A stretch of 61,101 nt of DNA, filler included, from Circinaria calcarea (taxonomy: Eukaryota), in the NCBI GenBank assembly GCA_051942165.1. It is 9 parts of 9 records of this genome, joined end to end, with 100 filler letters (N's around TTAATTAATTAA, not from the genome) between each part and the next. Parts side by side here need not be neighbours in the genome. Positions count along the whole stretch, not along the records: positions 40,847 to 47,536 come from JAVECS010001516.1; 8 more parts are not named here. The stretch is one strand, 5' to 3'. Position numbers and translations under genes: made by a program. Below are positions 6,720 through 54,421 of the stretch, one piece after another (position 1 is the first letter of the stretch; every line of letters starts with the position of its first letter). Under the pieces are notes generated by a model, which worked only from the letters and a program-made list of their open reading frames with translations, was not told the origin of the DNA and ran no database searches.

Positions 6720-6819
6720 NNNNNNNNNNNNNNNNNNNNNNNNNNNNNNNNNNNNNNNNNNNNTTAATTAATTAANNNNNNNNNNNNNNNNNNNNNNNNN
6801 NNNNNNNNNNNNNNNNNNN
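6720..6819. other. Artificial contig linker
   Basis: 44 N + TTAATTAATTAA (stops in all six frames) + 44 N. Confidence 0.98.
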
Positions 6820-13530: not shown

Positions 13531-13630
13531 NNNNNNNNNNNNNNNNNNNNNNNNNNNNNNNNNNNNNNNNNNNNTTAATTAATTAANNNNNNNNNNNNNN
13601 NNNNNNNNNNNNNNNNNNNNNNNNNNNNNN
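13531..13630. other. Artificial contig linker
   Basis: N-run with central TTAATTAATTAA. Confidence 0.98.
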
Positions 13631-20340: not shown

Positions 20341-20440
20341 NNNNNNNNNNNNNNNNNNNNNNNNNNNNNNNNNNNNNNNNNNNNTTAATTAATTAANNNN
20401 NNNNNNNNNNNNNNNNNNNNNNNNNNNNNNNNNNNNNNNN
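20341..20440. other. Artificial contig linker
   Basis: N-run with central TTAATTAATTAA. Confidence 0.98.
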
Positions 20441-27149: not shown

Positions 27150-27249
27150 NNNNNNNNNNNNNNNNNNNNNNNNNNNNNNNNNNNNNNNNNNNNTTAATTA
27201 ATTAANNNNNNNNNNNNNNNNNNNNNNNNNNNNNNNNNNNNNNNNNNNN
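27150..27249. other. Artificial contig linker
   Basis: N-run with central TTAATTAATTAA. Confidence 0.98.
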
Positions 27250-33954: not shown

Positions 33955-34054
33955 NNNNNNNNNNNNNNNNNNNNNNNNNNNNNNNNNNNNNNNNNNNNTT
34001 AATTAATTAANNNNNNNNNNNNNNNNNNNNNNNNNNNNNNNNNNNNNNNNNNNN
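33955..34054. other. Artificial contig linker
   Basis: N-run with central TTAATTAATTAA. Confidence 0.98.
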
Positions 34055-34599: not shown

Positions 34600-37316
34600 T
34601 CAATGCCCGATGCCGCCTGCGACCCATTGCCCGTAATTTGGATCCCCCGGGGGTGGGAAGAAGCCTCCGTCCGGCTGCTGGCCAGGCAAGGGCTGGGGCG
34701 CCGGAGCGGCCCCCTCCACCGCTCCTTGCGCGACTTGGTGCTCTACCGCCGCCGCCCTCCGGGCTGTCTGCTGCCTCTGCTGTCGGTAATATACCAGGAA
34801 GACGAGGGCTCCAGCCAAGGCGATTATGATTAGGCTTTCCAAGATCCCTTCGTCGATTTCGTCGTAAAAGTCATCGCCTCCAGGCATAGGATCATACATG
34901 GACGATTCGGGCTGGTCGTCGGCGTCGGCGGAGTGATAGTAAGGATGGTCGTCCCGGAAGAATTTGGACATCCATTCGCCCCAGGAGAGAATCTGTTTGG
35001 GTTCTGCATCTTCAGTTAGTATCGCACATAGCAAACAGTTAATGCATCAACTCACTAGGCTCTGATTGAATGGATTTAACTTTTCCATTCGTAAGCGTGT
35101 TCCAAGCACTCCGCATTCGCAGCTTCAGCAGACCCAACTTGACGGGCAAGTACGCTTCCTGATTCGTCTCCAAAGCCATGTCATAGAATCTTTTGGCCAA
35201 ATGGAAGTCTTGCTCCACCCCAATACCGTTCTCATGCATCCAACCCAGGTTCCACATTGCCTGTGCACTCTGTTGCATCTCAGCAGCGGTCTGGTAGCAT
35301 GTAGCGGCTTTCTCCATGTCGGCCTCTATCCCATATCCACCAAGGTAGTAATCCCCCATCTTAACCATCGAATCGATGTTATGTTGCTTGGCCGATCGGG
35401 TCCAGTATATCAATGACAAAAAGGCGTTACGCAAAAATGAAGGCTGCTTTTTCCATGGTAGTAGCGAATCCAATGGCAAAATCGATTTGTGCTCATCGAG
35501 CATATAGGCTACATTTGCCTGGGCGTACTCGTATCCCTGCTCGGCGGCCATCATGTATACAACCAGGGCAGTTTCTTTGTCCCCATTCTCATACGCTCTA
35601 TTAGCCTCTTCGAATGATGAATGTATGGCTTCGGCCTTCTCCACAACGACCTTGTAGTAAGCTGTTGCAAGCCCACAAGATCGGTCACGGCCTATGCCGT
35701 TGTTGGTCAGTTCGGCTAGGTAGTAAAACGCTTCGATTTGTCCGTGGCGTAGAGCAAGCTCGAAGAATCGGATTGCGGCCGGTATATCGCCTTGATCCAA
35801 GAAGAGTTTACCGAGCTGGACTTGGGCTGCAGGCCAATCCTGCTCTGCAGCCGCTTTGAAGTAATTCGCGGCAGCTACCGGATCTTTGCTAACTCCATAT
35901 CCATGAAGATACATCAGGCCTAATTCATATTGACACGAAGCATCGCCATTAGCGAGGCCACGCTTGAACCAAGTTAGAGCCTTTTCAAAGCTTGGCTCTG
36001 TAGCCTCTCCCCTCAGAAACATACGCCCAATGTATGCTGCAGCTTTGGAGGCGGTCTTTCCAATTTCATCGCCATCATCTGACAGCACCGAACCATCCTT
36101 AGCCCAATACTTGCGTGCGACAATCATAAAGTATGCTCTGGCCGTCTTTAAATTCCTCTTCATCGTCCGAGATCCGTCATAATGTAGTCGGCCGAGGCTG
36201 AACGTTGCCTTCAAGTCACCTTTCCTCGACATGAGATCTAGATATTCCAAGACGTCGTCAAGTGCCGCATTCTGGTCAGAGTTTGCCGGGGCTTTGTTGG
36301 CATGGACTCCAGAGCTGACAACGCTGGCACCTTCCCCATAGACACCACCCTCCTCATCCGCAATTCGATATGCGTCTCGGGGAAGCGCCAATCCGCCTGG
36401 TGGACCCGACCTGGCATATGCAATCGCTTTGTCGGCAACCTTCTTATAGTGTACGGCGGCTTCGTTACAATTCCTTGGGGTCCCGATCCCTGCGTGATGG
36501 CGGAAAGCGATTGTCATCTCAGACCTGATGTTCCCACCACGCGCTGCGAATGTATGATACATGAGTGCCTTTGCCTGATCTCTCTCAACAGCACCACCGA
36601 TTCCTGTTGCGTACATGAATCCGACCATATGCTGCGCAGAACTGTTGCCGTACAGTGATGAGAGTTCGTCATATCTCCGAAAAGCTTCCTTGTAATCTCG
36701 AGGGTGTGTGAAATTGCCGTAGAAGTTCATTTCGGCGAGTAGAAAAATAGCATCCGCATTACTTTCCCTCGCGGCTCCCTCCAGAAGCTTCACGGCTCTT
36801 GCCAATGGCTTGTTAAGTTTGCGCTCTTTGGGTTGTGTGTCGAGGGAGTCTTCTTGCTTGGGACCGTTCATGAAAAGTAAGACAAAGGCCTCCTTAGCGT
36901 AGTATAGCGATGTTCCCATGAATCCAGAACTGTTATCAAGACGCGAAAGTCGACTTCGTGGGGTTTCGAGACCGTGCAGTATTGAAAGTGCTTCCTGGAC
37001 ATCCAGTACTCCTTTTACAGCATGAGCTTCTGTGTAGAGTGAAGGGTTGTATACGCCTACCTTGGCTTCCATTACCATTGCCTCTTCGATACCACCGTTG
37101 ATTCTCCTTGGAAACAGGTTTGGTGATGGCACCTCGGACAGACGCAAGATCGATGCGTGGATTCGCGGTATCTGCAGACTCTTGCTGCTTCATCCATACC
37201 GACGGGAAAGAGACTAATAGTAACACTAGGCCAAGTCATTAGCATCTATGGAACATTCTGTCGCCCCGCAACGTACGAAACAGGAACGCCCATGGTGACC
37301 CTGCCGACCGCTTCAT
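34600..37316 (-). CDS. HRD3: ERAD ubiquitin-ligase adaptor Hrd3/SEL1L (Sel1 repeats), 4 exons
   Basis: Many Sel1 repeats (AQHMVGFMYATGIG, AMWNLGWMHENGIGVEQDFHLAKRFYD); signal peptide from spliced start MKRSAGSPWAFLF; C-terminal TM and WVAGGIGH end. Confidence 0.93.
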
Positions 37317-39329: not shown

Positions 39330-40610
39330 TGTGATTGTGATCTGAAAGGTTCGTTGGATTGAAACTCTGATGGTGATTTGCTGGAGGCAAGCAGCTTGAT
39401 TTTCGGGAGCCTTTGGCGCTTTAGGGCTTTGACCGACGAGGATCCGATATGAGAGGAGGATGTTCCGCTAGTACGCCGATTCAAGTGAACGATGTCAAAA
39501 ACATGCTAGGATGACTTTTGGATTTGCAGGTCTGTATGAGCTGCTGTTGGATGGAGATGTGCCGCTAAGAACCTGGACAGAAGGGGCCTAATAACTGAAA
39601 TGAAGCTCTCGACGGAATATCACAATAGTGGATTGCCACCTGAAAGCCTAGCATGGACATCTTGTCGAGTGCTCAGCTTCGATGGTCCACACCATCATGG
39701 CTTTGGCCCCAAGGCAACCAGGCAACAGAGCCCCCATCAAAGTTCTACATGTAATCACTCGCAGCGGCCTCTTTTCTAAGCTCGAGGCCACTGTTTCGTG
39801 TCCAGCTGTCATCTTCCACCGTCGCAGTCATCCACACTTTCTTCTTCAAACAATTAACCATTGGCGCGTCGGAAAGTTGACGATTCGTGAAGTTGAATGG
39901 GTGGCGCAGCTCGGTTCGCCGTGCCGCAACCAAAACCACGGACAAGGCTGCAAGGCAGACTGCGATTAAATTATCCATTGAGTTCCGACATTCTCCGCTG
40001 AGATGTCATCTTTGGGGGAGTAATGAGAGGTTCCAATCCGGTCGAGGACCTTCTCCTGTGCCACATGCCAACGGCCCCCAACGTCGACCGGCGCCACTTG
40101 CAGGAGGCTACAGAAGGCGTACAGCAAACGACGGGCTTGTCGGGAGGGGCTTTTGGGCCTCGTCATACTGCCATAATGCTTCGAGTGGTATCACAACGGG
40201 CAGTGCCATTTTGCAGAATGCTGAAAATATCCATTCGCAATCCAGCGTTGCGAAAGTGCTCAGCTCAGCTTACAATATACTTGCAGCACACCATCGACGA
40301 TTATACCCTTTTGAATGATCACTAATCGTCACCTCTCCGGACGTAAGGCGAAGAACGCACCAGTACTATCGCTTCCCAAAACGACACACTGGCAGGCTAT
40401 GGTAAAGGTCGAAACGATCAGCTTTGAAAAAACGTTGCATTGGAGCTGAGTAGTAGATACTACGGATGAATACGAAACAAGCGAATTCCTGGAGAAAATA
40501 CAACGTCTTGCATTTGCGTTGTTAGCCATATCGCCGATAACTTCCACGACTTATGAGGCAATTCCGACCATGACGTTGGGGCGTGTTACGGAAAAAATGG
40601 TTTGAAGAAC

Positions 40611-40746
40611 GGTCTTGAAGGAAGGTCTTGAAGGAAGGTCTTGAAGGAAGGTCTTGAAGGAAGGTCTTGAAGGAAGGTCTTGAAGGAAGGTCTTGAAGGA
40701 AGGTCTTGAAGGAAGGTCTTGAAGGAAGGTCTTGAAGGAAGGTCTT
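40611..40746. repeat. Perfect 13-bp tandem repeat (GGTCTTGAAGGAA), about 10.5 copies, running off the contig end
   Basis: Directly visible; a degenerate unit precedes it. Confidence 0.95.
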
Positions 40747-40846
40747 NNNNNNNNNNNNNNNNNNNNNNNNNNNNNNNNNNNNNNNNNNNNTTAATTAATT
40801 AANNNNNNNNNNNNNNNNNNNNNNNNNNNNNNNNNNNNNNNNNNNN
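40747..40846. other. Artificial contig linker
   Basis: N-run with central TTAATTAATTAA. Confidence 0.98.
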
Positions 40847-41330
40847 AAAATCGGTTATATAAATTTTTAATTAAATAAATTTTTAATTTTCGAATAAATT
40901 ATCGTCGAATAAGTTTTTTATTATTAAATAAATTAATTTTTATAATTAAATAAGTTTTTTATTCTCGGATAAATTATCGCCGGATAAATTTTTTATCGCC
41001 GGGTAAGTTTTTTATAATTAAATAAATCTTTTATTTTCGAATAAATTATCGCCGAATAAGTTTTTTATTAATAAATAAATTAATTTATAAATTATATAAT
41101 TATAAGCTGAACTGGTAAGCTACAGCCTCAAAGGCATTTTTATAATATATTATGTCGCTCGGAATAGCAGGGATATATAATTATTACTCCTTTAACTGTT
41201 TCACTCCGGGCCTATATATTCTTATGGCCCAGTCGAGCTTATAAGTTTTCTATATAAGCGTTCTAAAACTCAAGTTAATAGCCTCTCCCCAGAAATCTAT
41301 AGCTGCCTAATCTACGTCACGCACGACCAG
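40847..41330. repeat. Very AT-rich, probably RIP-mutated repeat/transposon remnant
   Basis: Degenerate tandem units like ataaattatcgccgaataagtttttt; TpA excess and CpA/TpG scarcity by eye. Confidence 0.7.
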
Positions 41331-43212
41331 ATCTATAAAATGCGTTGAACAAGGTCCCCCGTGCAGCTCAGTTGACCGAGGGTTTCTAGCTCGAGAGGGT
41401 GCCCAGATGCGACACTGAGGTCGGTCTCAGCCGTGTTCCTAACGATCGCAGGGTTTCTCGATTGCTGTGTAAGTTTGCGATGCAAGGTGAGACGGTAAAG
41501 GTCCAGGCCGGGCTTGTTGTAGATCGTAATGGTTGCCACGCGGGATTTCTTGATGGGAGGCTCGAAGAGCTAAAATCCCTTGTGAGATTCTTTTTGACCA
41601 AGATCCTAGTAACGCTCAAATTATACTTCGCGGAAGAAAATTGAAATTTCCGGGTAGAGAGCATATAGGGATGATCTAAGTGGACTTTTCTGCGTTAGGA
41701 AACACTCTTTTATATCGTCGCAATCTGTCACTCCCTACGCAGAGTTCAGTGGATAGATCGATTGTAAATAACTGATATCAATTAACCCTAGGCCTCACGA
41801 CTTCTATCACGTGACACTCCTATTCCTCCTAGAGCATGTGATTTATAACAATTTTATGAATGTTTATGAACTGTCAACACTGCACTTACTAAGCGAGAGC
41901 CGGCGCCATCAAATCATTTTCTGTGCATGGAAATATTCGAGAGAGTTTTATCGTCGAGCTGACCTTAGATAGAGGTCCGGTTGCCGAAAGCTTACCGATA
42001 ACGCTAGCATTTGTAAATCTGTACATGTGGAACATGACTGCGATCCCACAGAAAAACAAGAGGACCAGTGATGCTGAGAGGATCGGTATCAGTAACACCG
42101 AATCACCCAACGCGTGATATGTGGAGGACTGAAAGCATTCTCACATCTCATTGTGACTGACAAGTACTACTTGAAATGTGAAAGTGCCTCTAAGCTGATA
42201 TTTGAAATTGAAGGCGCTCCAAGACAACCTGCAGATATGGGGAGGGTACACACTAGCAAACATAAAGTAGTCTTCAACAAATCTTCAAGACATCGAAGCT
42301 ACACATATGAGCGCTTATTCCGAACTGCAGCAAGATATTGCGCTAGTCGTCTTCTTCGCTCGAAACAATTTTGAAAACTTATAAGACAGAATCAATGGGA
42401 TATGTTTCGCGCAAGCGGTGTTTCAAAACGAAAAGGTATTCAACCAGAAGGGTAAGTGAAATTCCCTTGGCACGCCTTTACTTCACTCGAGACTTAACAG
42501 AACGACTTGAAAACCTCAGCTGTGGCGCCTCGGCGTCAACCATACAGACCATGAGGTTTGCTCTGCACGGAAATCTGTCCAGAATATTCTTCTCCTCCTG
42601 AACGCCAGAACATGCGACAGCCTAGGAGAGCTTCCTCGCCTCTCACTAGCAGAGTCAAAGATGGAGATACGTCGCTAGCCAACCCTCTACGATGCCCTCT
42701 CGAGGCGCAGGGAGAATCGAGGTAATCGAGGGAATAATGCGAATTGCAAGAGAGACGGCTGAGAGGCTCTGGAGGTTATATGAATCCGGACGCTAAACTA
42801 GCTGCGGAGATTTCCCGTCCGCTTAACCCGATTGGGGAAGGTTCTCCCGTGAGTTTCAATGCTCTGTTGTGTAAACGCTCTGGATTCGCTGAGCTGATAT
42901 CTGAAAGCGTTTGACCAGAAAATGCCTTGTCTACGTGCAGGTGTCTGATTTGGCTGTTCTACTCTGAGCTGAGCAGCAGTGGTGAGTTGTGGTAAGATAC
43001 TTGGCTGCTGAAGGGACCACTAATGCGCCTTAGAGATACGGCTCAAGAGTTGCACTGCCGCCTGATTGCTTTGTCCGAGAGACAGCCAGGCAGCAGTACG
43101 GGTCCGTGTAGAATCATCCTCTTCCTCCTGGTCCATCACCTTAATATCGTACCATTACTCTACTTTACCATCAAATCACTTTATCGAAGCAGGTAAAGTC
43201 TGTCCAACAATC

Positions 43213-44022
43213 ATGAGCTCCTCTACCCCTTCTGGCACTGATCCGATACAATCCCTCGTTCGCAACCTAGCCGGTCTTTCATTGACCCTTATCGACGACT
43301 CTTCTCTGCCGCAGTTCAACTCTCTCTTCAAGAACCACCTGGAAACCCGCTTTAGCGGATACCGAGGCGGCGCGGTCTACGAACCTTCCCATCATCCTTC
43401 GGGAGGTTTCATCAGCTCTGTGGCTTTTGAGGATTACAATAAAAACCACTACCTCGTCAAAACACCCCATGGAACGAAGTATCAGAACATGAAACAGGCG
43501 AACGGTGCGGCTTCTAAAGTGGCTTATGAGATGCTCAAGGCTGGGCAGAAACCTCCGCTCGCCAGCTCGGTAGTGCAGACTGGGGAGATTATCTCTACCA
43601 CTACGGGGGATGACTATCGTATCCAGAAACTGGAAATCATCATCAAGCACGTCATTCAGGACCGCGAGCTCGCCCTCCGCGCGCTGAGGCACTCATCCGT
43701 CGGGCTCAACAACCATGACGCCTTAGCTTTCCTCGGCGACGCCATCATTGGCTATTTGATGGCCCTGGAAGCCTTCACCACCGCCCCGAATGCGACCGTG
43801 CAAGACCTACACTACACTCGGAGTCGACTGGTTGAAAACGACGAGTTTCAGCGTATTGCACAAGAGATCGGGTTGGCAGAATTGCTCGAGGTTGGCGGTG
43901 GGACCAACGGGCCGATGACGGGTAAGAAGATGGTCGCGGACATGTTTGAAGCCGTCATTGCAGTGCTCTGGTTGGAAGGCGGCGAGGAAGCCGTGCTCAG
44001 GTTCTGGCGCAGCTGCCACTGA
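43213..44022 (+). CDS. Intronless RNase III-domain protein (269 aa) with N-terminal dsRBD-like domain
   Basis: ALRHSS, HDALAFLGDAII (RNase III signature), RSRLVEN and KMVADMFEAVIAVLWLEGG; the N-terminal half fits a dsRBD pattern (FNSLF..VYE..GFISSV..NMKQANGAASKVAYEML). Confidence 0.88.
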   Translation: MSSSTPSGTDPIQSLVRNLAGLSLTLIDDSSLPQFNSLFKNHLETRFSGYRGGAVYEPSHHPSGGFISSVAFEDYNKNHYLVKTPHGTKYQNMKQANGAASKVAYEMLKAGQKPPLASSVVQTGEIISTTTGDDYRIQKLEIIIKHVIQDRELALRALRHSSVGLNNHDALAFLGDAIIGYLMALEAFTTAPNATVQDLHYTRSRLVENDEFQRIAQEIGLAELLEVGGGTNGPMTGKKMVADMFEAVIAVLWLEGGEEAVLRFWRSCH

Positions 44023-44046
44023 TGGATGATTGAAACTTAGTAATTG

Positions 44047-44173
44047 AGCATGGGGACCGCGCAGGAACAGCGACCGGGGAGTAGGGCTGTGCCATGTGGT
44101 GAAGGTATTCTGACCTTCACCGCATGGCACAGCCCTGCTAAACCGGACGTAGCTCCTGCGCGGTCCCCATGCT
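44047..44173 (+). other. Long inverted repeat / RNA hairpin (~60 bp stem, 6-nt loop) just 3' of the RNase III gene
   Basis: 44047-44066 is the perfect reverse complement of 44154-44173; 44080-44106 pairs with 44113-44139 (two G-U); loop ATTCTG. Confidence 0.93.
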
Positions 44174-44699
44174 TTGTTACGAAGCCTCAGGCTTCCATTC
44201 AAACGGAAAGGTGGAATCTACGGTTCGGAAGACTGCGGTTTGTTGAGACGGTTTTTATGAGAACAGCAATGGCAAACTCAATACGCTCATTATTTAGTTA
44301 CTAGTAGATCAGAGTACTAGAGAATTTTAGTTTTGCTGTCCTGCGAACATTATCGATTTCTGGATAGAATAAGATACACTCACTAACTTCACGATCCAGT
44401 GTCAGCTTTTCTCTGATATCCCACTGTGCTGTCATTGCATACATACTATTGCCGGCCAACTCTCTTCCTGTGATCGGTATGCATGACGGTATCTCAACTC
44501 AGTCCCGTAGTTACCCGCCGAGCGGGTGGAATCCTCCTTTTAGTCCACCCTAAACTTCTAGTATAGATATCGGACCTCCACAGTCGTAAACTTATAAGAC
44601 ACCACAAATCAAAACCTATACTCCGATATTGTTGCTTACTCCGTAAAGCATCTTTAGCTTTACTAGTACCTCGCATTACTTCTTTATCCATGAAAGGTG

Positions 44700-45296
44700 A
44701 TGAATGCGAAGCATTATCCAATTGACGTTGTCCCAGAGGGCGTGTCCCTGTATGTCATCAACCACTTCAGCTCATGGCCATGGTGTACCCAACTTCTCAA
44801 CAATCCCGCCTTGATTCCTATACAAACAACTTCGCGAACAATTCAGCCAGGCGACGAAAATTCTTTCCTGGGACGAACCCTACTCACCGAGGATACCATT
44901 CCAGCATGCCAGTCTTTCTACATGCCACCATCATCGCAGCAAAATCCTACGCTCACTGGCGCACCCAATCTTGGACAACTGCAGACTTTATACTCGATTG
45001 GTTCAGGGCTCAACGGTCATGAGCACACCGGTCATGGTGGTCTCGTGGCCTTATTGTTAGATGAGATCATGGGGATGATGGTGAGGCTACATCCCGCATT
45101 CAAGAATCCTTACACCGTGACACTCCGGGTGGTCTATAAGAAAGCATTCCCTACTCCTGGTGTGGTTCTTTGCAGAGGCTGGTGTACGAGGCTGCAAGGT
45201 CGGAAAATAGAGATGTCCAGCGCTGCTGAGGACGGCACAGGAGTCCCAATTGCGACAGGAGAGTGTTTGTTTGTGGAGGCTAAGGGAAAGCTCTGA
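44700..45296 (+). CDS. Hotdog-fold thioesterase (PaaI/THEM4-like)
   Basis: GLNGHEHTGHGGLVALLLDE motif; YTVTLRVVYKKAFPTPGVV; GRK; GECLFV. Confidence 0.9.
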   Translation: MNAKHYPIDVVPEGVSLYVINHFSSWPWCTQLLNNPALIPIQTTSRTIQPGDENSFLGRTLLTEDTIPACQSFYMPPSSQQNPTLTGAPNLGQLQTLYSIGSGLNGHEHTGHGGLVALLLDEIMGMMVRLHPAFKNPYTVTLRVVYKKAFPTPGVVLCRGWCTRLQGRKIEMSSAAEDGTGVPIATGECLFVEAKGKL

Positions 45297-45590: not shown

Positions 45591-46535
45591 CTAATAAACC
45601 GATAAAACATCAGAACTTCTGCAGAGGGGCAAGAGGAAGATAATGGTAATCCATAGACTCCATAACTTCCAGGTCAGCTCATCCGATCCTACATTCCTCA
45701 AGAGCAATACTCTGAAGACGACAATTCCTCCAAAAATGACGGGTGCTAAGAATCCATAAACATTCAAGGCCCAAACAGCTGGGCATAATAACGACCAAAT
45801 CGTGATCGAAAAAGCAATGGTCCATCTGGCGATGCCATCCCCCCAAATAATTGGTGCTGTTTCCCTACCACGAGCCCGGTCTCCGGCTTGATCTCTCAGG
45901 TCTTGTACGTGGAGGGTTGTAAAGATTAATACAGATTTTAAAGCAAGCCAACGGTAGCCTACCCTATTAAGGGTAACACCTTCGCCACTTGCCACAAGCG
46001 TCGATCCAGCACTCCAACAGACGAGTCCGAGAGCATTCAGAAGATTTCGAACGATGTAATTCTCAGAGCCACCGAGTTCGTTATACATCCAGCTTAAGAC
46101 CATTGAAATCGACGTCTCTTTGCTTCCTCCAAGGTAGAGGGTGGAGATAAATACGGACGGAACAACTGCGAGGAGTAACCAGCGGGCTTGAGTTATCGTG
46201 AGTCTTCCTGATGGCAGAGGACGCCAAGCTTTGTTCACAGAATCTTCGATAACAGAGCTTGGCAAACGCTGATTCGCTATTGTAAAGGCCAAAATATTCA
46301 ACCATACCCATAACAGAACTTGAGGTAAACGACCAATGATATCTTTACCATTTGGATTTTCGTTTGTGGTTAAGGCCGGTCCAGAGAGAGCGCTGAATAT
46401 GCCGAAGGCTACCCAAGGGTAAACTATTGTTGTATGCTCACTACACGTAAAAAGCCAAAGAGTCTGAAGATGAAAAATCGCCTCTGTAACCGGGAAGAAT
46501 AAATATTTATTAAAATATCTGGTGGTATTCTGCAT
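45591..46535 (-). CDS. UbiA-family membrane terpene cyclase / prenyltransferase (Fma-TC-like)
   Basis: HLQTLWLFT, NQRLPSSVIEDSVNKAWRPLPSGR, WMYNELGG and QDLRDQAGDRARGRETAP motifs; multiple TM helices. Confidence 0.88.
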   Translation of the reverse strand: MQNTTRYFNKYLFFPVTEAIFHLQTLWLFTCSEHTTIVYPWVAFGIFSALSGPALTTNENPNGKDIIGRLPQVLLWVWLNILAFTIANQRLPSSVIEDSVNKAWRPLPSGRLTITQARWLLLAVVPSVFISTLYLGGSKETSISMVLSWMYNELGGSENYIVRNLLNALGLVCWSAGSTLVASGEGVTLNRVGYRWLALKSVLIFTTLHVQDLRDQAGDRARGRETAPIIWGDGIARWTIAFSITIWSLLCPAVWALNVYGFLAPVIFGGIVVFRVLLLRNVGSDELTWKLWSLWITIIFLLPLCRSSDVLSVY

Positions 46536-47536: not shown

Positions 47537-47636
47537 NNNNNNNNNNNNNNNNNNNNNNNNNNNNNNNNNNNNNNNNNNNNTTAATTAATTAANNNNNNNN
47601 NNNNNNNNNNNNNNNNNNNNNNNNNNNNNNNNNNNN
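47537..47636. other. Artificial contig linker
   Basis: N-run with central TTAATTAATTAA. Confidence 0.98.
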
Positions 47637-47704
47637 GTCCTTTCATCGTCTGTACGTACTTGGCCGGGGGATCCCGGCCAAGTACGTACAGACGATGAAA
47701 GGAC
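47637..47704. repeat. Perfect 32-bp inverted repeat with 4-nt loop at the contig start
   Basis: gtcctttcatcgtctgtacgtacttggccggg-ggat-cccggccaagtacgtacagacgatgaaaggac. Confidence 0.9.
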
Positions 47705-54321: not shown

Positions 54322-54421
54322 NNNNNNNNNNNNNNNNNNNNNNNNNNNNNNNNNNNNNNNNNNNNTTAATTAATTAANNNNNNNNNNNNNNNNNNNNNNN
54401 NNNNNNNNNNNNNNNNNNNNN
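54322..54421. other. Artificial contig linker
   Basis: N-run with central TTAATTAATTAA. Confidence 0.98.

Follow-up and report, generated by a model that had tools for sequence, protein, structure and literature searches.

A long foldback hairpin directly downstream of an RNase III-family gene with a predicted reversed domain order in the lichen fungus Circinaria calcarea

The stretch of DNA analyzed here (the window; 61,101 bases from Circinaria calcarea, assembly GCA_051942165.1) consists of nine contigs of about 6.7 kb each. On one of these, JAVECS010001516.1 (40847-47536), which is a complete contig of 6,690 bp, a gene for an RNase III-type protein is followed directly after its stop codon by a long hairpin. 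The host of this contig is a lichen-type ascomycete fungus. The contigs are joined by linkers of 44 N, TTAATTAATTAA and another 44 N; these joins are artificial, and the reading of features across them is invalid. The hairpin is a real, genomically encoded foldback. The protein belongs to a small and narrow family, which is characterized by an RNase III domain in a modelled reversed domain arrangement and by a family-wide replacement of glutamate by alanine at the metal site.

The gene is an intronless coding sequence on the plus strand (43213-44022) of 269 amino acids (aa) and a TGA stop, with the start ATG at 43213 and the stop at 44020-44022, as delimited by the open reading frame (ORF) call, Pfam and a full-length alignment of relatives, which was obtained with eleven of them. 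The product from this ATG is identical to the database protein P0168 (269 aa), which ends at the same stop. The assignment to the RNase III family had already been made in an earlier reading of the sequence alone (the sequence-only reading), and it is borne out by Pfam: PF00636 matches aa 170-257 with 57.7 bits (cut-off 27), and PF14622 matches aa 150-265 with 50.9 bits (cut-off 35). The mL44 endonuclease model stays below its threshold (E 0.037, 14.5 bits versus a cut-off of 27). The complete RNase III domain (aa 131-269; 43603-44019, plus strand) is delimited by PF00636, PF14622, Foldseek and VIA. An AlphaFold2 model of the protein, built from 12 family sequences and of moderate quality (mean predicted local distance difference test score, pLDDT, 67.4), shows a folded unit at aa 29-109, followed by a disordered linker and a helical domain. 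Foldseek returned 26 matches in the PDB at E <= 0.001, with E. coli RNase III on top (7r97_A, E 6.5e-6), which identifies the modelled fold as that of RNase III. In addition, structural matches of the helical domain in VIA include RTL4 (9h4a_B, Z 16.2) and E. coli RNase III (7r97_B, Z 15.0). By sequence, the best solved matches are the RNase III domains of Drosha (E 1.2e-14).

Based on the AlphaFold2 model and its structural matches, the N-terminal unit (aa 29-109; 43297-43539, plus strand) is predicted to be an alpha-beta-beta-beta-alpha domain that resembles a double-stranded RNA-binding domain (dsRBD). The modelled helices at aa 29-45 and 93-109 enclose strands at aa 54-60, 66-73 and 79-83, which is the dsRBD order alpha1-beta1-beta2-beta3-alpha2. 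When compared with solved dsRBDs using VIA-align, model residues ~30-112 match HYL1 (3adg_A) with Z 8.2 and a root-mean-square deviation of 2.1 over 69/72 residues. Among the VIA matches ranked 24-50, at least 19 are dsRBD entries (Z 6.8-9.3, on model residues ~18-131), where a Z under 8 may reflect a common arrangement and the N-terminal match stands for likeness of fold and not for RNA binding. The N-terminal 150 aa match none of the Pfam families at E <= 0.1, including the dsrm model PF00035. The Atlas look-alikes of this unit are dsrm clusters (score 0.85), which are a lead only.

At the other end of the protein, four residues follow the final helix of the RNase III domain, and the C-terminal dsRBD of the class 1 architecture is absent. 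In the model, the domain order, with the dsRBD-like domain N-terminal and the RNase III domain C-terminal, is the reverse of that in bacterial RNase III and in all nearest relatives inspected. A missed downstream exon encoding a C-terminal dsRBD was considered and rejected: all 12 family members stop at or a few residues past a ...FW.SCH motif, the shared stop of P0168 also argues against it, and the region 44304-44697 holds no plus-strand ORF of at least 60 aa. The automatic gene calls of two relatives, P0001 and P0169, begin 53-63 residues upstream of the true methionine. These extensions cross a stretch that is similar to the upstream ORF of the window at 43066-43212, and the 5' leader stays in an open frame in both of these species, which is probably either chance or a conserved leader.

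The metal-binding carboxylates of Aquifex RNase III are E40, D44, D107 and E110 (as listed in an excerpt of PMC3867540). Alignment of the protein to Drosha and the bacterial enzymes locates three of these four ligands, namely D176, D243 and E246, which are invariant in the family alignment. The position of Aquifex E40 lies in the signature motif NHDALAFLGD and is occupied by Ala172 in each of the 12 family members aligned. The equivalent change in E. coli RNase III, E41A, results in weak activity in vitro (an excerpt of PMC8708148, Table 1), and because this variant is weak rather than dead, the protein described here could still have nuclease activity. Taken together, Ala172 and the weak activity of E41A suggest therefore that the 269-aa protein may cleave slowly or in an altered way, or may mainly bind.

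Relatives of the protein are few. A word-indexed protein search resulted in 21 proteins at E <= 0.001, 12 of which are family members (E 1e-154 to 6.7e-33), and the other proteins are RNases III of the bacterial type that match the nuclease half only. In an exhaustive search of 1.84 billion representatives (clusters at 50% identity), five were found at E <= 1e-30; the matches past those five cover only aa ~104-268, and the nearest of them are Dicer-like proteins, which match with their second RNase III domain. Close orthologues are P0001 and P0169 (both 90% identical), P0002 (84%) and P0003 (57%). All named family members are from two lichen fungi, Lignoscripta atroalba (MCJ1259043.1, 57% identical) and Circinaria calcarea (KAL9120983.1, 51%). 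An account of this protein family or of the hairpin was not encountered in a limited search of the literature on RNase III and lichens and on MITEs (miniature inverted-repeat transposable elements) and Lecanoromycetes.

Scans with the family profile were extended to nucleotide collections. In metagenomes, 459 stretches matched, of which three encode a relative (L001, L002 and L003), and none of the 98 matching stretches from contigs of prokaryote genomes and none of the 89 from viral contigs does so. L001 (509-1003) and the near-identical L002 encode a truncated relative with 38% identity over the C-terminal half; they represent one distinct, distant and truncated locus and count as one data point. 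Their product consists of a dsRBD-like remnant (..GWGGFIGSV..YKQKRYA..) that passes directly into the C-terminal half of the RNase III domain; it is without the signature motif. In the 4,997 bases of L001, no inverted repeats of at least 16 nucleotides (nt) are present, and the 300 nt past the stop fold with a z of only -2.25. L003 (3911-4468), on a metagenome contig of 103 kb with high GC, is an RNase III-like gene of 185 aa that stands alone. It also has an alanine at the E40 position (KLAFLGDA) and is without the aspartate equivalent to D107 (..LATAFEAV..), and its active site is independently degenerate.

The core of the hairpin (44047-44173, plus strand, as are all its parts) is 127 nt long, and its first Watson-Crick pair is A44047-T44173. 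It is separated from the stop codon by a spacer of 24 nt (44023-44046), which is also the decayed outer left arm of a larger palindrome. The 5' arm of the outer stem (44047-44066, 20 nt) is a perfect complement of the 3' arm (44154-44173). It is followed by an irregular middle, in which 13 nt on the 5' side (44067-44079) face 14 nt on the 3' side (44140-44153) with six mismatches and one indel, and eight scattered pairs are formed in the fold. The inner stem is built from 27-nt arms (44080-44106 and 44113-44139) and closes on the 6-nt loop ATTCTG (44107-44112), which is not an AGNN tetraloop. On the plus-strand RNA, the inner stem contains G-U pairs at 44082 and 44097 (T44082-G44137 and T44097-G44122), and on the minus-strand RNA, both positions become unpaired A-C. 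The anatomy given in the sequence-only reading, with a hairpin 24 nt past the stop, a perfect 20-bp outer stem, a mismatched middle, a 27-bp inner stem, a 6-nt loop and inner-stem deviations that are G-U in the sense RNA and A-C in the antisense RNA, proved correct in every detail. Beyond the core, as a feature absent from the sequence-only reading, a weak palindrome extends outward to 44022 and 44198, where 16 of the 25 bases of the decayed outer right arm (44174-44198) are complementary to 44022-44046 (binomial P ~1e-4), giving a total length of 177 nt. Because the decayed palindrome reaches 44022, its left arm starts with the final nucleotide of the stop codon.

The plus-strand RNA folds at -122 kcal/mol, compared with a mean of -53.1 (standard deviation 4.0) for shuffled sequences (z -17.2; 0/200 shuffles as good). 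The minus-strand RNA (-113.8 kcal/mol, z -16.2) and the DNA (-74.3 kcal/mol, z -14.5) fold stably as well. Within a context of 550 nt, both stems have a mean pair probability of at least 0.996. Among sliding 130-nt folds over both strands of the window (n = 5,916), the hairpin is the extreme, with -106 versus a mean of -29.2 (standard deviation 8.2) and a runner-up of -69.7. None of the families in Rfam 15 reaches its gathering score; the best is mir-938 with 26.9 bits versus 84, and the three matches on the contig at E <= 1 are all below gathering.

The two arms differ at two of the 47 stem positions, and both differences are transitions. The sequence-only reading had put weight on the fact that both of these are G-U pairs in the sense RNA, and this strand argument does not hold, as the chance probability for two is 0.25, and over the whole palindrome, the transitions that give G-U in the sense versus the antisense RNA are 6 versus 3 (P 0.25). 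The distribution of the differences along the palindrome is uneven: of 86 aligned columns, 18 are mismatched, and only two of those lie inside the two helices (47 columns), a clustering that is matched by 0.6% of 5,000 random placements (P 0.006), a value that is somewhat optimistic since the window sizes were chosen post hoc. Such clustering outside the helices could reflect selection for two helices of the length of RNase III substrates, or a composite origin. Regarding the position in the transcript, no AATAAA-type signal is found between the stop codon and the hairpin, and an AT-rich trough is present past the hairpin at 44273-44372. Such troughs often mark fungal 3' ends. Because of the missing signal before the hairpin and the trough beyond it, the hairpin is probably part of the 3' untranslated region (UTR).

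Multiple searches for further copies of the hairpin have been performed. No second copy was found in the window using regular expressions and blastn. The 20-mer of the outer arm has no match in viral contigs and the two-arm pattern has none in contigs of prokaryote genomes. The peptides read from the hairpin (86 aa on the plus strand and 55 aa on the minus strand) did not reveal a copy among 5.8 billion protein clusters. For a fungal repeat, all of these are weak tests. Furthermore, neither arm has a target-like match within the window, and no gene related to a transposase was seen among the large ORFs of the window.

Other features of the window include two genes on the same contig. Immediately past the hairpin, a 4HBT-type thioesterase gene (44697-45296, plus strand, 27.9 bits) is followed by a UbiA prenyltransferase-family gene (45591-46535, minus strand, 59.8 bits). 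These two neighbors of the hairpin may belong to a small metabolic cluster. The start of the contig (40847-41101) is an AT-rich low-complexity block with many short overlapping palindromes of the TAAATAAATTAATTT type, and GC content is 0.40 over 40001-42000 versus ~0.49 elsewhere. The artificial linkers are at 6720-6819, 13531-13630, 20341-20440, 27150-27249, 33955-34054, 40747-40846, 47537-47636 and 54322-54421, and the large ORFs on the other pieces match the eukaryotic families SRP68, PPR, LIM and Sel1. The next contig opens with a perfect 32-bp inverted repeat around a 4-nt loop (47637-47704), which ranks second in the window by fold stability (-69.7 kcal/mol) and is followed by T/G-rich and C/T-rich low-complexity tracts. 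This repeat resembles a fold-back artefact at a contig end, with a real terminal hairpin as the alternative. The strong fold at 34641-34770 was set aside, being merely GC-rich sequence (z +1.23). A scan for promoters and terminators of the bacterial type gave no sites, which is irrelevant for a fungus.

The reading that we favor, albeit tentatively and at a little less than an even chance, is that the hairpin is a foldback formed at the DNA level, which lies in the probable 3' UTR beside the gene by coincidence and is at most a generic target for enzymes that act on double-stranded RNA (dsRNA). It could have originated when the start of the 3' flank was duplicated locally in inverted orientation, or when a MITE-like foldback inserted. 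If, as the trough suggests, the poly(A) site lies beyond the hairpin, the messenger RNA (mRNA) would carry helices of 20 bp and 27 bp. Any cellular dsRNA-specific enzyme, with Dicer as the first candidate, would then be able to cut these helices and thereby remove the poly(A) tail, which would, as a side effect, reduce expression and might yield small RNAs. That the neighboring gene is of the RNase III family would then be coincidental, and picked out by a scan seeking such pairings. Multiple observations are in line with this DNA-level origin. The arms are near mirror images (2 differences in 47), as those of young inverted repeats and foldback elements usually are, and the hairpin is without strand preference, folding nearly equally on either strand and as DNA. 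The perfect 20-bp arms at 44047-44066 and 44154-44173 have the form of MITE terminal inverted repeats, a possible 3-bp direct repeat, TTG, flanks both sides, with the partly palindromic flanks (16/25) blurring the boundary, and the size of the hairpin is within the typical size class of MITEs. The catalytic site of the neighboring protein appears weakened (Ala172, 12/12 members), and the hairpin is absent at the one distant relative locus (L001/L002) and fits no Rfam family. On the other hand, several points weigh against a coincidental foldback. A second copy was not found, and multi-copy status is a hallmark of MITEs, although the searches have low power for a fungal repeat. The palindromy past the perfect arms (16/25, P ~1e-4) is not predicted by a clean insertion with a target-site duplication (TSD), and TTG is only 3 bp long; because the palindrome extends past the arms and TTG is the sole TSD candidate, a plain MITE insertion fits poorly. 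The uneven mismatches fit selection for two helices of RNase III-substrate length. Finally, RNase III-family genes are few in a genome, and by our own estimate it is unlikely for any single genome that a foldback would land by chance 24 nt past the stop of one of them.

A dedicated feedback element is a rival reading that is possible but doubtful. The hairpin in the gene's own 3' UTR would be recognized by the gene's own product: the N-terminal dsRBD would bind it, and a dimer of the RNase III domain would cut it or merely bind it. If it were cut, the mRNA would lose its poly(A) tail and its level would drop, resulting in negative autoregulation and a 3' UTR counterpart of the rnc leader. The distance of 24 nt without an AATAAA-type signal, together with the trough beyond, would place the hairpin within the mRNA, and its helices of 20 bp (21 with a G-U pair) and 27 bp, at about two turns each, belong to the size class of RNase III substrates. 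The mismatches cluster outside these helices, the palindrome stops at the stop codon, the fold is the strongest of the window, no other copy was seen in the sequence searched, and the protein combines a dsRBD-like fold with an RNase III domain in which three of the four metal ligands are invariant. Precedents have also been described: the 5' UTR of E. coli RNase III contains a hairpin that the enzyme itself cuts (in an excerpt of PMC3867540), and RNase III hairpins placed 2 nt past a stop codon inactivate the transcript in yeast (in an excerpt of PMC3094065), and because of these precedents, the idea of feedback is reasonable. It is weakened by the alanine at the Aquifex E40 position throughout the family, as E. 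coli E41A is weak, by the hairpin not being found at the one distant, truncated relative locus, by the lack of significance of the G-U strand bias, and by the near-perfect DNA symmetry, which is equally expected of a young repeat. The full proposal, in which an RNase III of a lichen fungus with reversed domains and one replaced ligand controls itself via a two-helix hairpin in its 3' UTR and possibly gives rise to Dicer-independent small RNAs, is regarded as unlikely. An improbable option is that the hairpin, as part of the 3' UTR or of a read-through transcript, is the precursor of small RNAs with targets elsewhere, as a microRNA-like or hairpin small interfering RNA locus that is cut by Dicer or another RNase III-domain protein. 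Its shape, with ~55 pairs broken by an internal loop and capped by a small loop, resembles long precursors of the plant type or of fungal microRNA-like RNAs (milRNAs), and Dicer, QDE-2, QIP and the RNase III-domain protein MRPL3 take part in the milRNA pathways of fungi (according to an excerpt of PMC4139310); the arms, however, have no target-like match in the window, and the mir-938 score (26.9 bits versus a gathering score of 84) reflects a mere hairpin shape. A cleavage site of the Rnt1 type, serving 3' end formation or fail-safe termination, is very improbable. The position directly downstream of a gene would suit it, and Rnt1p sites in yeast 3' UTRs inactivate transcripts, but such sites need an AGNN tetraloop over four pairs (both in an excerpt of PMC3094065). 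Because the loop here is the hexaloop AUUCUG and not AGNN, the hairpin is not a canonical Rnt1p site. It is equally hard to credit that a chimeric fold-back read was built into the contig. The assembly is fragmented (6,690 bp for this contig) and another contig of the window starts with the perfect 32-bp palindrome at 47637-47704, but the palindrome discussed here is internal and only 177 nt long, has unique flanks and has genes on both sides in consistent orientation. Moreover, there are 18 differences between its arms, among them an indel; in an artefactual fold-back, the copy would be perfect and all sequence downstream would be inverted. The partnership between enzyme and hairpin that was put forward in the sequence-only reading, by way of feedback cleavage, 3' end formation or small RNAs, is neither supported nor refuted by these results.

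If the hairpin is a mere foldback repeat, the finding is an ordinary one, showing how a scan can catch a coincidental neighborhood. The protein family is noteworthy whatever the hairpin is, with its predicted reversed domain order, the Glu-to-Ala change at the metal site and its very narrow distribution. If the hairpin is the enzyme's own substrate, the locus would be a compact and self-contained case of eukaryotic RNase III feedback in the 3' UTR, in poorly studied fungi.

Multiple known systems resemble the locus in part. Class 1 RNase III, RTL4, mL44 and Mucor R3B2 likewise combine a single RNase III domain with one domain of the dsRNA-binding type, and the enzymes of E. coli and Aquifex as well as RTL4 share the same RNase III fold (Z 15-16). 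The protein described here differs from class 1 RNase III and from the small eukaryotic RNase III-like proteins in that the dsRBD-like domain is modelled at the N-terminus, in the motif NHDALAFLGD and in having Dicer-like proteins as the source of the nearest outside domains. Similar to MITEs and other foldbacks, the hairpin is short and non-coding, has perfect 20-bp terminal inverted repeats, folds back as a whole element and may be flanked by TTG; in contrast to them, it has one copy in the sequence searched, is palindromic past its terminal repeats and has a center that is more perfect than its middle. Drosha cleaves hairpins resembling microRNA precursors in the mRNA of its own complex partner, DGCR8. 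Those hairpins are located in the 5' UTR and coding sequence of the partner mRNA, whereas the one described here lies in the putative 3' UTR of the nuclease gene itself. In Neurospora, MRPL3 is a non-Dicer RNase III-domain protein that helps to make hairpin-derived small RNAs (in an excerpt of PMC4139310); MRPL3 is a mitoribosomal protein of the mL44 type, whereas the protein described here matches the mL44 model with an E of only 0.037. In yeast, a hairpin just past the stop codon directs cleavage by Rnt1p and decay of the transcript, also in engineered 3' UTR modules (in an excerpt of PMC3094065), but there the loop is an AGNN tetraloop instead of AUUCUG, and the protein described here is without the C-terminal dsRBD of the Rnt1 type. 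In the E. coli rncO system, the mRNA of RNase III carries an irregular hairpin, and cleavage by its own product lowers the mRNA level (in an excerpt of PMC3867540); the hairpin described here likewise consists of helices and an internal loop. The bacterial hairpin is located in the 5' UTR of an operon, whereas this one lies 24 nt past the stop codon of a eukaryotic gene that encodes an enzyme with a predicted reversed domain order and without the glutamate equivalent to E40/E41. If the hairpin is indeed cut by its neighbor, it would correspond, in a eukaryote and on the 3' side, to the rnc operator of bacteria.

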